A program made the position numbers. From a virus (taxonomy: Duplodnaviria > Heunggongvirae > Uroviricota > Caudoviricetes), in the IMG/VR virus record IMGVR_UViG_2703718799_000033: a stretch of DNA of 11,791 bases, one strand, 5' to 3'. This document shows positions 6,001 to 11,791 of the stretch, piece by piece. Numbering within the stretch: position 1 is the first letter of the stretch; every line of letters begins with the position of its first letter.

Positions 6001-9000
6001 CTGTCAGAACAGCTATATGACCGACAAGTCGAACTGATTGAGAGTATCCGGCTTCATCAACTGGCCTCAACTTTTGACGTTGTAACAGGCAAAGGCGTTC
6101 GTCAGGAAGTGCTGGAGGCTGCTAAAGACAGCCCTGAGTTCGAAGAACTGATGGATGCCTATCGGCGAGAGGCAATGGCAATTATCGCCCGCTGGGAGCT
6201 GGCGGATCAGCTTGATGGGCAGAGGGACGCGGCATGAATCCGGGAATTTATTTCGATATCAGCAACGAGGACTACCACGCCGGTGACGGCGTGAGTAAGT
6301 CGCAGCTAGATATGGTGGCTAAGAACCCTGCCCTTCTGAAATGGGTGAAGGCTGCTCCGGAAGACGAAGAGAAGAAGTCTGCACTGGACATGGGTACTGC
6401 TCTGCACTGTCTGCTTCTGGAACCTGGAGAGTTTGACAAACGCTTCATCGTTTCACCGAAATTCGATCGTCGGACAAAACAAGGTAAAGCTGACGAAGAG
6501 GCATTTATTCGTGATGTAGCGGATATGGGGATTTCGGTACTTGATGCAGAGCAGTGGCGAAAACTGGAGCTGATGCGTGATAGCGCAATGGCTCACCCGG
6601 CGGCACGCTGGATGTTGGAAGCACATGGTTACTGCGAAGCATCAATGTACTGGAACGATGAAGATACGGGTGAGTTGTGCCGAATTCGTCCAGACAAATG
6701 GCTGAACGAGCACAACGTGATCGTCGACGTGAAAAAGGTTGCAGATATGGACCGTTTTGCACGCCACATCGAGGAGTTCCGCTACCACGTGCAGGACGCA
6801 ATGTACCGCGAAGGCGCAATGAGGGTTACTGGTCAGCCACATGGTTTTTTCTTTCTTGCCGTGAGCGAAAGCATTGATTGTGGTCGGTATCCGGTACGCG
6901 TGTTCGAGCTGGATGCGCCGGATGTCGATGCCGGGCACGCTCTGTTCCGCCGGGATCTGAATACCTATCACGAATGCCGCATCAACGATGAGTGGGGCGG
7001 AGTGGAAATTATTAAACGCCCTGACTGGGCACGTAAACAGGATATGTACGTATGAGCAATGATATCGCAATCACATCACAACCAGGCGCAACTGTAGGTA
7101 CTGCTGCGGCAATCTTCAGCCCGGAGGGCATGAATCAACTGGTGCGTTTCGCGGAGTTGATGTCACAAAGCAAAGCGACTGTACCGAAACATCTTGAAGG
7201 CAAACCTGCCGATTGTCTGGCGGTGACCATGCAGGCGGCACAGTGGGGAATGAATCCTTTCGCCGTGGCGCAGAAAACGCATGTGGTAAACGGAACGTTA
7301 GGCTACGAAGCACAGTTGGTAAACGCGGTCGTATCCTCTTCCAGCCTGCTAGCGACACGCCTGAATTATCGCTGGAGCGGTGACTGGTCGAATGTTAACG
7401 GCAAAACAGATAAATCACCGAATCTGACGGTAACTGTGTCAGCAGTTCTTAAAGGAGAAGCAGAACCCCGTGAGCTTACCATCAGTATGGCGCAAGCCGG
7501 AGTGCGTAACTCTCCATTGTGGGAACAGGATCCGCGCCAGCAGCTTGCCTATCTTTGCACGAAACGATGGGCTCGCCTGCACGCTCCTGATGTACTTCTC
7601 GGTGTTTACACCCCTGACGAATTACAGGAAACGGCACCGCGCGTTGAGCGAGACATTACTCCGCAAACGACCACTGCTGCGGGAATGAACAGTCTGATCA
7701 ACGCTAAACCAGCGAAAAAGCCTGATGAGCAAACGCGTAAAGCGGATAGCCGTGATCCAGAAGAAATGCTGATGGCCTTTACCAGCGCAGCGATGAATTA
7801 CAGCACTGTCTCCGAACTGGATAAGGCTTACAAATACATTGCACAAAAACTTTCAGATGATGACGAACTGCTGGCAAAAGCCACCGACGTTTACAGCGTT
7901 CGTCGGGAAGAATTAAACGAAACATCTATGTAACCACCACCGCGGCGCCACGCGCGCCGCACTGCAACCAAGAGAGGTATTTATGAAAGGTGCATTAGGT
8001 AAGAAGGAACTCCTGGCGGTGGTGCCACTGTCATGGAGCACTATCGACCGTATGGAGCGCGCAGGGGAATTTCCTAAACGCTGGTATATCACCGATAAAC
8101 GCTGCGCATGGAACCGTGATGAAGTTGAGCGTTGGCTTGATGAACGTCAGGCAGCAAGCCCGGCAGAGTTCCAGGGTAAAAAACCTCCTGTTCAGCAACG
8201 TGTATATCGTCCCGTGAGCAACGCGGCATGAGTGTGCTGCTAAGGCACTGGAGCAAATGGTCAGGATGGTACTTATTCCTGGCCTCTGTTTCTGCATGGC
8301 TTTATCTGCTGGCATTAATTTTCAGAGATGGTTGGATTAAGTGAGAAAGTTAAGCCGACTTGAAAAATATCACATGAACAAGGTTTCAATGCGCAGCCCT
8401 TCAAAGGTTGTTGCCGTTACTCCTGCGGCGATAGAGATCGAAAAACGCGCGATTGAAAGAGAGAAAAAATGGCAGTTCCGCATTGCCGCCCACCTTTGGC
8501 TTCAGTGTATGGATGTTGCTTCTGGTGATGTTGAGCGTGCAAGGATCGCGGTTCGCAGGGACCAATGTATCACAAAAGGTAACGGCCTTCGCCGTGGCGA
8601 CTATAGCGGCATAGGATGTTGCGGGGTGGTTTATGACTAAGAAATACACACTAATCTATGCAGATCCACCCTGGGTATACCGGGACAAAGCCGCAGATGG
8701 TAATCGCGGTGCCGGTTTTAAATATCCGGTTATGAGTGTGCTGGATATCTGCCGCCTTCCTGTGTGGGATTTGGCCGATGAAAACTGTCTGTTGGCCATG
8801 TGGTGGGTGCCAACACAACCACTCGAAGCACTAAAAGTTGTTGAAGCCTGGGGATTCCGTCTGATGACCATGAAGGGCTTCACGTGGATAAAATGTGGTA
8901 GTCGACAACCAGATAAACTGGTTATGGGTATGGGGCACATGACTCGCGCCAATAGTGAAGATTGCCTGTTTGCGGTAAAGGGAAAACTACCTACGCGCAT

Positions 9001-11791
9001 TAATGCAGGGATCGTTCAGTCATTTACCGCACCGCGGCTTGAGCATTCAAGAAAACCAGATATCGTTCGTGAAAAACTTGTGCAATTGTTAGGCGATGTT
9101 TCTCGCATTGAACTGTTCGCCCGCCAGTCGTCTCATGGTTTCGATGTTTGGGGTAATCAGTGCGAAGACCCGGCAGTGCAACTACACCCTGGATACGCGT
9201 TGGATATTGGCGGATTAACAAATGCATTCAGCAATGCTCCGCTGTCACCAACAGACAACCAGGGGCGGGAGCGTGCAGCATGAAGCAGATTATGGTTGCA
9301 CACAACGGCGTCAGGTTTGAAGTCGTCATGGTTTTGACTAAGTACCGCAATGATGAGGTATTGCAGAGAAAAGAAACTGTAACTTACCGTTATAAACACC
9401 GAAGTTCAGCTGTTAGAAGATTACGGAAGATTACGGAAGAGCTAAAAAATGATCCTCATCGTGTTATTGAGGTAAAAGGCAACCCATATAAAATCACAAC
9501 TTCAGTGGAGCTAAGACATATGCAATAAAATCACGCCTGACGAATCGCGATTATCTCGCTATTGGTATTGCAGAGATTGCTGGACTCAGTGGCGCATGAT
9601 TTGACAATGCCGCCAGAGCTATCGCATACTGACCGCACTAGAACTTCAAAGCGGTCACCCGCACCCGATAGCTTTGCGGCTTTTTTATGCCTGCAATTTG
9701 GCATAGTCACATCCGTACAAAGGTCGGGTGGAGAGGCGTAATACAATACCCAAAAGGGGAATATGCCCGGAGCGTCTTTGAAGGCTCTAGTTGACACCCG
9801 ATCACCAGCTACTAACTGGTGATTGCTAACTAAAACTTCAAAGGAGGTCATCATGACCAGTCAACTCATCCCCGTATTCAACGGCACTATATCTAACGAA
9901 ACAGCCCTACTTTGCAATGCCCGCGATCTGCACGCTTTTTTAGGTGTTAAAAAGGTGTTTGCAGCATGGATTACAAATCGCATTTCAGAATACGAATTCA
10001 TTGAAAATCAAGACTATATTTTGCTTTCCAATTTGGGAAAGCAAACATCTGGTAGAGGCGGCCACAACCGCAAAGAGTACCACCTCACCCTCGATACAGC
10101 CAAAGAACTAGCAATGGTCGAGCGTAACGAAAAAGGTCGTCAGGTACGACGCTACTTCATTGAATGCGAGAAACGTTTAAGACAACAAGAAACAAAAGTG
10201 GAGAAGGTCTTGTCAGGCTTCATGCCCGCCATTATGGAGGCGATCAAGCTGGAAGACAAAAAAGAATACAGCGCCCCACTGAAGCCCGGCTACCGCAGCC
10301 TGATTCATTCTCCGTCTGGTGTTCTCGGCCTGACGGAGAACTCACTGCTGATGAATCTGCTGAACCAGTTACAGGAAGACGGGCACGACGTATCGGGCGC
10401 GGCGGCGGAGCTGACCACCATGTTCTGCTACATCGTCGGTGTGAGCAAATGCCTGCGTGATATCCAGACCCACGCGGAGTACATCAACGACAAGGCAGGG
10501 TTCTTCTGACGGCGGCGGCACAGGGACGTGCCGGGCAAAATTATTCCCCCGCCATCCACTTATCAAACTTCGACGGGGAGAACGGAATCAGATCCGTATG
10601 CTCCCCGTTAATCCAGGAATCAATCATATCGGACCACTGCTGCAACATGTAGGCGCGCTGTCTGGCGTATTCCGCTTTGTTATATACGGCGCGCACACCT
10701 TTCTGCTCATGTGCCAGAGCCTTTTCAATCCAGTCTGAAGGATAACCAGCCTCATGCAACAACGTACTGGCTGTACGGCGCATATCGTGTACGGTGAAGT
10801 CCTGAATATGCTCACCATCTTCATTTATTATTTTCACCGTTCTGTCGATCAGAGAGTTCAGCGCGGCATTAGATAATGGCTTCCGGAAATTGTAACGACC
10901 AGGAACCAGATATTCACTTCCACCAGCGCACATCTGCAACCCGACCAATATATCCTGTGCCTGTTTAGGCAGGTAAATAACGTGCGCCCGGCTTCCCTTC
11001 ATACGGTCTGAAGGAATTGTCCATGTCCATTTTTTAAAATCTATTTCATCCCACGTTGCATTGGTGAATTCGCCTTTACGAACCATAGTGATAAGCACCA
11101 GCTTTAAAGCCATTTTCATAGTGCCCATAGCGCCAATGGCATCCAACGTGCGGAAGAACAGGCCAATTTCTTCTGGTGTCAGTGTTCGCTCTCGTGGTTT
11201 AAATATGGCGATAGACGAAGGTTTAATGTCAGCCGCAGGATTAAACAAACCATGACCACGGTCATTGGCGTGACGGTATACGCTGCTGATGATCTCCCGG
11301 GCCTGCACTGCTGTTGCCCGGCCACCGCGTTCGACAATCCGGTCACACAAATCACGAACCATCGATGTGGTAATTTCAGCCATCATTTTGTTGCCAAGAA
11401 CCGGAAGTATGTCACGGTCGATCACCGCCTGCTTCATTGCGCGGGTACTTTCAGCCAGGATGACGTGTTTCATATAACTGTCGGTATGTACCGCAAATGT
11501 CTCGGCACCACGAATCTTTTTGATACCGTCACGTTTAGCCGCAGCCGGCGACTGGCCTGCTTTAAGCAGCTTCTTTGCAGCAATCAGTTCTTCCCGCGCT
11601 TCTGCCAGGCTGATACCGTCACGCCCATACTGCCCGATTACCAGTGTTTCGCGGCGACCGTTGATACGGTAGTCATAGCGAAACGAGACCGTACCTGACG
11701 TAAGCACAGCTACATACAGCCCGTCACGATCGGAAACTTTGTACAGTTTGTCCTGTGGCTTGAGGTTCTTTAATTTTGTATCGGTAAGCAC

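Follow-up and report, generated by a model that had tools for sequence, protein, structure and literature searches.

The question raised by this locus is whether an MT-A70 adenine methyltransferase gene in a prophage forms a functional unit with the small genes that overlap it on either side, and what the enzyme is likely to methylate. The window, i.e. the whole 11,791-nt stretch of DNA that was analysed (IMG/VR record IMGVR_UViG_2703718799_000033), corresponds to the early-left arm of a prophage of the TL-2011b type, adjoining guaA; the phage that matches it, TL-2011b, is 44.8 kb long and is not known to be an Stx phage. The finding itself is routine, in that this is a well-annotated orphan phage methylase gene, ordinary and widespread among prophages, with a close relative that has already been studied experimentally. 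The reading preferred here, to which a probability of about 60% can be attached, is that the gene at 8633-9283 encodes an intact, stand-alone MT-A70 (beta-class) methylase, that it is a freely exchangeable module and that, by homology, it is probably directed at GATC.

The methylase gene and its setting

The methylase gene (8633..9283, + strand) encodes a protein of 216 aa that matches the Pfam MT-A70 family (PF05063) along all 172 positions of the profile (E 3.3e-22; 79.7 bits, the cut-off being 23.9), and it is the sole match in the window to a defence library, as PADLOC MTase_II with an E value of 2.8e-77. Motif IV, DPPW, occupies residues 11-14 (encoded by 8663-8674) and aligns with the same motif in MT-A70 family proteins of known structure, the closest structures being those of ciliate MT-A70 family proteins and METTL3. 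The homologues of the methylase number 2557; no variation is seen among homologues at P12 or W14, conservation at D11 and P13 is at least 90%, and the loop after the FTW motif is of two kinds, a CGSRQPDKLV type and a TNKHKGNSAI type. The allele itself is carried by 538 of 5426 complete E. coli genomes (~10%). That the enzyme is active, when it is expressed and what its biological role is are matters of inference. The designation of the gene as an orphan MT-A70 adenine methyltransferase was borne out by the domain, the DPPW motif and the absence of a nuclease partner, since PADLOC and Pfam searches of the window revealed no restriction endonuclease. The one nuclease found, a PD-(D/E)XK exonuclease (6234-7055), pairs with RecT and is not a restriction nuclease, and the small proteins flanking the methylase are not nucleases.

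The genes run in order from the recombination genes through an AlpA-like gene, a 38-aa membrane ORF, a PerC-family gene, the methylase and an accessory gene to the integrase, and between 5923 and 9528 six of the seven junctions are overlaps. The AlpA-type HTH gene (7983..8231, + strand), which is excisionase- or regulator-like (Pfam Phage_AlpA, E 3.1e-5; phrog_66, E 2e-16, annotated as 'excisionase and transcriptional regulator'), opens the overlap-coupled run leading to the methylase, and it stands before the 38-aa ORF and the PerC gene in most of the loci having both. On the other side of the methylase a structured RNA belonging to the Rfam family sRNA-Xcc1 (RF02221; 9722..9811, + strand; 62.9 bits against a gathering threshold of 53, model positions 1-87 of 87) lies between the accessory gene and ant, where it starts the next module and is outside the methylase unit. 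It is followed by ant, which encodes an AntA/AntB-type antirepressor (9853..10509, + strand; PF08346, E 4.2e-26; phrog_377, E 3.9e-67), and, at the prophage end by guaA, by a tyrosine integrase gene on the - strand (10541..11791), as annotated by RefSeq in an identical locus. The methylase is probably co-transcribed with its neighbours; a scan of 7900-9900 for promoters and terminators yielded nothing exceeding shuffled expectation.

A 27-aa ORF (8257-8340) had been put forward as a possible gene ahead of the PerC gene. The ORF exists, with GGAG 3 nt upstream, but it has no family match and its frame is not conserved, the start and stop codons being lost in diverged relatives and an internal stop being present in one of them (L007). 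The conserved small gene at this position is a 38-aa single-pass membrane ORF in a different frame (8228..8344, + strand), which matches phrog_17484, 'membrane protein', over residues 1-38 of 38 (E 1.8e-26), has a Kyte-Doolittle maximum (19-residue) of 1.92 at residues 14-32 and is an annotated CDS in phages Tyrion and SPC32N. Its frame is open in 23 distinct DNA versions, with 38 codons and the terminal overlap in 21, and it runs longer in L158 and L160, the two most diverged. An ATGA overlap with the stop of the AlpA-like gene is found in all 23 versions and a GTGA or ATGA overlap with the PerC start in 21 of them.

Overlapping neighbours and the proposed cassette

The gene directly upstream of the methylase (8341..8640, + strand; 99 aa, GTG start) was described in the original prediction as being of unknown function, but homology searches place it in the PerC family. 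The match to PF06069 is weak and covers only core residues 35-80 (24.7 bits, cut-off 22.6), that to phrog_868 has an E value of 1.5e-60, and RefSeq names the product 'PerC family transcriptional regulator'; there is also a weak match, below the cut-off, to NCBIfam ANR (E 0.0013). In the AlphaFold model helices span residues 6-17, 28-42, 46-59 and 63-80, and residues 84-99 have pLDDT values below 50, so that the protein is predicted to consist of an all-helical four-helix core and a disordered C-terminal tail. A comparison of the model with the PDB gave nothing significant, the nearest structures being MIT/TPR-like helical bundles with E values of at least 0.3.

It had been proposed that the PerC gene, the methylase and the 82-aa gene downstream (9280..9528, + strand) constitute a co-translated anti-restriction or epigenetic cassette. 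The arrangement itself is real: the three ORFs lie on the + strand, the PerC gene overlaps the methylase by 8 nt (8633-8640), the methylase overlaps the 82-aa gene by 4 nt in an ATGA (9280-9283), and identical E. coli genomes carry all three as RefSeq CDSs. However, of 161 related loci just 3 have the 82-aa gene after the methylase, and it occurs in 19 of the 5426 complete E. coli genomes, compared with 538 for the methylase allele, which it can thus accompany in at most 19 of those 538. The genes most commonly found after the methylase encode DUF1382 or a Ser/Thr phosphatase and are joined to it by the same ATGA overlap, whilst the only distant homologue of the 82-aa gene resides in a prophage lacking a methylase, and the 82-aa gene itself has a distinct, low GC content (0.40). 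The 82-aa gene is an optional accessory beside the methylase, and a lack of conservation in related prophages, which had been named in advance as evidence against the proposal, is what was found for it.

At the 161 loci the genes beside the methylase form 42 clusters upstream and 47 downstream, including NinB, NinG, YbcO, DndB, HNH, DUF1317, DUF1382 and phosphatase families, yet most methylase junctions are overlaps of -4, -1 or -8 nt whichever gene is the partner, and in a set of 79 loci (L003-L081) the methylase is overlapped in at least 60 on either side. The 8-nt overlap stems from the 3' end of the PerC gene itself, where the sequence GTx-TAT-GAx-TAA is retained when another gene follows. 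In relatives that are 79-89% identical, the PerC gene and the methylase are separated by 147-1211 nt of other genes, and in most loci outside E. coli the PerC gene is absent or apart from the methylase. Since ATGA-type overlaps are packed along the whole operon, translation of the methylase is probably coupled to that of whatever gene comes before it, but for the same reason the overlaps are uninformative about shared function, and since the neighbouring genes are interchangeable the three genes are not a functional unit. That they nevertheless act as a co-translated cassette is considered highly improbable.

Substrate and possible partner

Acting alone, the stand-alone methylase would most likely modify the adenine of GATC in DNA, in the manner of Dam, to judge from its relatives. 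Over residues 1-187 it has 83% identity (90% positives, E 9e-124) to M.EcoPA8orf6770P of phage PA8, the C-terminal 29 residues being different, and the literature on that enzyme presents two competing substrates, GATC in DNA and 16S rRNA. Gong et al. described M.EcoPA8orf6770P as highly similar to M.EcoGV (PMC10810198), an enzyme from E. coli O104:H4 which, according to statements in the same paper, modifies GATC in vivo upon overproduction and has relatives entered as GATC enzymes in REBASE; M.EcoGV is likewise listed as a GATC enzyme in the O111 methylome paper (PMC6602927). Expression of the MT-A70 protein p32 of Serratia phage BZS1 in a dam- host rendered plasmid DNA resistant to MboI and sensitive to DpnI, while HinfI and Hin1II still cut (PMC7556043). 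BZS1 p32 shares 41% identity with the Tn1549 GATC enzyme and 75% with the enzyme of HK639 (PMC7556043). The HK639 enzyme is 45% identical to the methylase in the window and has, behind the FTW motif, ~21 inserted residues that are missing from the latter, so that specificity is not simply transferable from the BZS1/HK639 subclade.

The case for rRNA comes from the finding that purified M.EcoPA8orf6770P on its own uses DNA weakly in vitro, unmethylated GATC included, but that together with PNB-2, the upstream gene product with which it copurifies 1:1, it prefers 16S rRNA and 30S subunits (PMC10810198). Given the weak use of DNA, the modification of GATC seen with overproduced M.EcoGV could be a consequence of overexpression, as Gong et al. 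argue (PMC10810198). A six-frame translation of the window contains no match to PNB-2 or PNB-1 at E values up to 10. The GATC count is uninformative, the window containing 38 sites where 46 are expected, which amounts to neither a deficit nor an excess.

Since E. coli hosts have a Dam of their own, it is not evident what a second GATC methylase would add. An anti-restriction or epigenetic role would be plausible. Dam-like methylation would keep the DNA of a fast-replicating phage fully GATC-methylated and would shield it from enzymes cutting unmethylated GATC, and it may influence the frequency of induction. An alternative is that the methylase is an anti-restriction enzyme with a non-GATC or relaxed target that would, once the phage is induced or infects a cell, protect its DNA from several of the host's restriction systems. 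The methylase is an orphan encoded in a hotspot of accessory genes beside the integrase, which would suit such a role, a Tad2-like anti-defence domain occurs in one upstream-neighbour cluster of related loci, the two loop types after FTW could mean different targets, and prophage adenine methylases of relaxed specificity are known, such as M.EcoGII (PMC7544214) and the Serratia OS31 enzyme (PMC7556043). However, the characterised members of the small MT-A70 clade that act on DNA (those of Tn1549 and BZS1, and M.EcoGV) all give GATC, BZS1 p32 left the other m6A-sensitive enzymes tested unblocked (PMC7556043), and no comparison made in this analysis ties M.EcoGII or the OS31 enzyme to the clade of the methylase. 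A target of this kind is regarded as improbable. M.EcoGIX, a plasmid single-strand methylase, was also considered as a relative and was set aside as irrelevant.

A further consideration is whether the PerC-family protein does for this methylase what PNB-2 does for the 83%-identical PA8 enzyme, on which PNB-2, likewise encoded upstream, confers the preference for 16S rRNA (PMC10810198). The methylase would then be a two-subunit enzyme with the PerC-family protein as an adaptor or regulator that directs it to rRNA or another target, or controls it. Among 80 non-redundant loci a PerC-domain gene lies upstream of the methylase on the same strand in 25, while none has one downstream or on the other strand, a pattern for which a shared operon order alone would suffice; in 11 of the 25, from two methylase subclades, it is immediately adjacent, but in the other 14 further genes intervene, and in 55 of the 80 loci no PerC-like gene is present within 3 kb. 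Six of the adjacent PerC-domain proteins have an apparent N-terminal winged-helix-like region, a weak assignment derived from L025 and L058 only, and their C-terminal domain aligns with PerC at an hhalign probability of 97.8% (E 1.2e-12). The MIT/TPR modules that the predicted PerC fold resembles, though not significantly, bind proteins or peptides. PerC and PNB-2 are unrelated in sequence, and a profile-profile comparison (hhalign probability 0.8%) ruled out PNB-2 as a hidden PerC-like protein. Within E. coli the PerC gene still adjoins the methylase in 68 of ~70 viral contigs and in each of the 11 full-length genomes that were sampled, but this junction belongs to a single DNA block of at least 95% identity and linkage alone explains its conservation.

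There are no stable PerC-methylase fusions. Of two candidates, P0003 (3 sequences) is accounted for by the loss of 1 nt from a T run, and P0001 has a deletion within PerC; of 136 PerC homologues found, the 120 that were listed include no methylase fusion. A two-subunit enzyme with PerC is judged unlikely, and it is equally doubtful that phage MT-A70 enzymes have dedicated partners in PerC-domain proteins, with or without a fused winged helix, which would then constitute another class of adaptor or regulator beside PNB-2. The recurrence of PerC-domain genes, some apparently winged-helix fusions, directly upstream of these methylases is nonetheless an open lead. If such a partnership existed, the PerC protein would determine either how active the methylase is or whether its substrate is a DNA site or rRNA, and the poorly understood PerC/Pch family would gain a biochemical role through adenine methylation.

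The allele is of modest value as a natural control for the question of whether this prophage MT-A70 clade acts on GATC in DNA or, with a partner, on 16S rRNA, because it lacks PNB-2, carries a PerC-family gene in its place and occurs in ~10% of the complete E. coli genomes. It bears on whether the targeting of rRNA belongs to the enzyme or solely to PNB-2, and on whether the recurrent pairing of PerC domains with these methylases carries any meaning.

Comparison with known systems

The closest known system is M.EcoPA8orf6770P of the Stx2a phage PA8 (Gong, Chakraborty & Koudelka, NAR 2023, PMC10810198), which shares with the stand-alone methylase described here the MT-A70 family, the DPPW motif and a length of ~210 aa. 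It too is prophage-borne, without a nuclease partner, a few genes from the integrase and overlapped by a few bases by the gene upstream. The two differ in the C-terminal tail, which diverges after residue 187, and in that upstream gene, which in PA8 encodes PNB-2 (143 aa, probably a winged-helix protein) and in the window the PerC-family protein. Thus, of the features of the M.EcoPA8orf6770P-PNB-2 holoenzyme, the window has the related catalytic subunit but no adjacent PNB-2 gene, and the rRNA preference and the phenotype (spontaneous induction, virulence) are those reported for the PA8 enzyme, not this allele.

Other known members of the PerC family are PerC of EPEC and the Pch proteins of EHEC prophages (PMC6265319, PMC4764244). 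The product of 8341-8640 is above the Pfam PerC threshold and, as with the pch genes, its gene is borne on a prophage; it differs in being encoded within an AlpA, 38-aa ORF and PerC trio in an early phage operon. BZS1 p32 and M.EfaBMDam of Tn1549 (PMC7556043) belong to the same small prokaryotic MT-A70 clade and are likewise orphan enzymes of mobile elements encoded near an integrase, but the BZS1/HK639 subclade has only ~45% identity to the methylase. The Dam enzymes of phages T4, P1 and VT2/933W have the same proposed role, that of an orphan phage copy of the host Dam specificity, but are alpha-class and unrelated in sequence, and the existence of GATC enzymes in both the alpha and beta classes represents convergence (PMC7556043).

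The methylase gene and its prophage setting

The MT-A70 assignment of the 216-residue product of 8633-9283 (+) is solid: Pfam PF05063 is matched over the entire profile (E 3.3e-22), the DPPW motif at residues 11-14 is conserved among homologues (2557 were found) and, among solved structures, ciliate MT-A70 family proteins and METTL3 come closest. The description of the enzyme as an orphan also holds, no restriction nuclease partner having been found in the window. A 2-kb region around the gene has 100% identity to prophage DNA in the chromosomes of several STEC and further E. 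coli strains, and in NZ_CP074890 this region belongs to the arm of a lambdoid-type prophage whose terminus is a tyrosine integrase gene adjoining guaA. The gene order on the + strand begins with an HTH repressor-like gene, followed by small genes, a PD-(D/E)XK exonuclease gene and then RecT, an AlpA-type HTH gene (7983-8231), a PerC-family gene (8341-8640), the methylase gene, an 82-aa hypothetical gene (9280-9528) and an antirepressor gene (9853-10509), with an integrase gene on the - strand. The nearest named phage is Escherichia phage TL-2011b, whose methylase is 98.6% identical and whose gene order is the same. Visual inspection of the 49 nt that separate RecT from the AlpA-like gene showed a GC-rich inverted repeat at 7940-7960 (+) (GCGGCGC ... 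GCGCCGC), which is not followed by a T run.

Conservation of the methylase neighbourhood

The PerC, methylase and 82-aa ORFs overlap by 8 nt and 4 nt (ATGA) exactly as first described, and from these overlaps a three-gene, translationally coupled cassette had been proposed. Comparison with other loci does not bear the cassette out. The ORFs directly flanking the methylase gene were identified in each of 161 loci with methylase relatives (75 species-level genome loci, 80 viral contigs and several named phages) and grouped into sequence clusters, of which there were 42 upstream and 47 downstream; their Pfam families include NinB, NinG, YbcO, DndB, HNH, DUF1317, DUF1382, a Tad2-like domain and several HTH types. 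Most methylase junctions have an overlap of 1, 4 or 8 nt independent of the identity of the neighbour, and overlaps occur at six of the seven junctions from 5923 to 9528 of the window. The 82-aa gene directly follows the methylase gene in 3 of the 161 loci; in other loci a DUF1382 or Ser/Thr phosphatase gene follows via the same ATGA junction. Among 5426 complete E. coli genomes the 82-aa gene is present in 19 and this methylase allele in 538. With neighbours so variable, overlaps so generic and the 82-aa gene so rare, the three genes therefore lie side by side in a mosaic operon without forming a unit. One cluster of upstream neighbours (alignment A6) has a Tad2-like (Thoeris anti-defence 2) domain, which suggests that the methylase is often located in anti-defence or accessory-gene hotspots.

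The 8-nt overlap belongs to the PerC gene, whose 3' end, GTx-TAT-GAx-TAA, contains the ATG of the following gene even where a non-methylase gene comes next. The final 16 PerC residues are predicted to be disordered, and we take a retained 3' end encoding a disordered tail to fit a sequence conserved as RNA, for the sake of translational coupling.

A true partnership between PerC and the methylase was considered, since a PerC-domain gene is the methylase's most recurrent neighbour. A survey of 80 non-redundant methylase loci with an iterated PerC profile placed such a gene upstream on the same strand in 25, and in none of the 80 downstream or on the opposite strand; it directly adjoins the methylase gene in 11 loci, from two methylase subclades. 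Six of the adjacent proteins (in loci L025, L026, L054, L056, L058 and L066) have an additional N-terminal region ahead of the PerC domain, and their C-terminal domain matches PerC with an hhalign probability of 97.8%. Pfam gave no whole-protein family for these two-part proteins, only the PerC-domain match and weak N-terminal HTH matches, the winged-helix ones being sub-threshold and confined to L025 and L058. The two-part proteins end at about position 3000 in each locus. The partnership nevertheless seems improbable, because 55 of the 80 loci lack a PerC gene in the vicinity, the two genes are often separated by others (one to three in phages Tyrion and SPC32N, as in relatives at 79-89% identity), no stable fusions exist and PerC has no sequence relationship to PNB-2, the product of the gene upstream of the Stx2a-phage PA8 methylase M.EcoPA8orf6770P. 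A common operon order accounts for much of what is seen. PerC-methylase fusion ORFs of 297 aa (protein P0003) do occur, rarely, in public assemblies; these arise by loss of one T from a TTT run at the 8-nt overlap (window 8626-8640), a loss that may be a sequencing error or a natural variant.

The small genes around the methylase

The gene upstream of the methylase had been called unknown, yet its product scores above the Pfam PerC threshold, and RefSeq too names it PerC. The model of its product has four helices and a disordered tail (pLDDT 72), a structure search returned only a non-significant resemblance to MIT/TPR-type helical bundles, and the protein is not a winged helix. The 27-aa hydrophobic ORF at 8257-8340 proposed to precede it is not the conserved frame, its start and stop being lost in diverged relatives and an internal stop being present in L007. 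An overlapping frame of 38 aa (8228-8344) is matched along its full length by a phage membrane-protein family (E 1.8e-26) and is open, with the same hydrophobic pattern, in 23 distinct DNA versions, 21 of which have 38 codons. It starts in an ATGA overlap with the AlpA-like stop and ends in a GTGA overlap with the PerC start. The AlpA-like gene, this 38-aa membrane ORF and PerC, so linked (7983-8640, +), make up a conserved trio that recurs in L003, L005, L011, L014 and others; Uetakevirus-type phages (Tyrion, SPC32N) and numerous Enterobacterales prophages have it too, and as a unit it is more stable than the set of PerC, methylase and 82-aa gene first proposed.

The 82-aa gene is best regarded as optional and accessory. 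Its product forms one cluster among 5.8 billion proteins, and the sole real distant homologue (52% identity) is encoded next to an integrase in an unrelated prophage that has no methylase. At 0.40, the GC content of the gene is below that of the methylase gene (0.50). The confident model (beta-beta-alpha-beta-beta, pLDDT 83) found no meaningful match in the PDB. Within the coding region, at 9420-9439 (+), the 10-mer ATTACGGAAG is perfectly duplicated in tandem; the homologue P0123 aligns here without gaps, and the duplication is therefore no recent frame-shifting insertion. The 324-nt gap between the 82-aa and antirepressor genes contains a full-length match to Rfam sRNA-Xcc1 (RF02221) at 9722-9811 (+), scoring 62.9 bits (gathering score 53), with a promoter-like site (TTGACA, 18 nt, CATACT) upstream at 9601-9630. 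The element may serve ant as a leader or regulatory RNA.

Target of the methylase

Residues 1-187 of the methylase are 83% identical to the PA8 enzyme, whose DPPW-dependent effects are more frequent spontaneous induction of the prophage and greater virulence (Gong, Chakraborty and Koudelka, PMC10810198). Expression in the lysogen is reported for the PA8 enzyme. In vitro the PA8 enzyme by itself has weak, unspecific activity, and with PNB-2 it forms a 1:1 complex that prefers 16S rRNA and 30S subunits (PMC10810198). PNB-2 was not found in the window; PNB-2-like genes precede a few of the HK639-type methylases (L006, L052, L055, L079). M.EcoGV, highly similar to the PA8 enzyme, is described as methylating GATC in vivo upon overproduction, and REBASE entries are quoted as listing relatives as GATC enzymes (PMC10810198); M.EcoGV is likewise given as GATC in an O111 methylome paper (PMC6602927). 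In dam- hosts, GATC specificity was found for more distant clade members, Serratia phage BZS1 p32 and Tn1549 M.EfaBMDam (PMC7556043). Lacking the rRNA-directing subunit, the enzyme would act as a Dam-like GATC DNA methylase, its gene being carried as a free module. This is the best-supported prediction for 8633-9283, held with only moderate confidence because the in vitro data for the PA8 enzyme call for caution.

Gong et al. 2023 regarded the methylase as apparently unique to Stx phages (PMC10810198). Contrary to that view, relatives occur in 75 loci (L007-L081) from roughly 70 bacterial species, mostly Enterobacterales, as well as in Vibrio, Klebsiella, Salmonella and other phages. The methylase is a real yet ordinary observation, a new member of a known and already studied clade, and its value lies mainly in its use as a natural PNB-2-less, PerC-linked variant with which to settle the DNA-versus-rRNA question.
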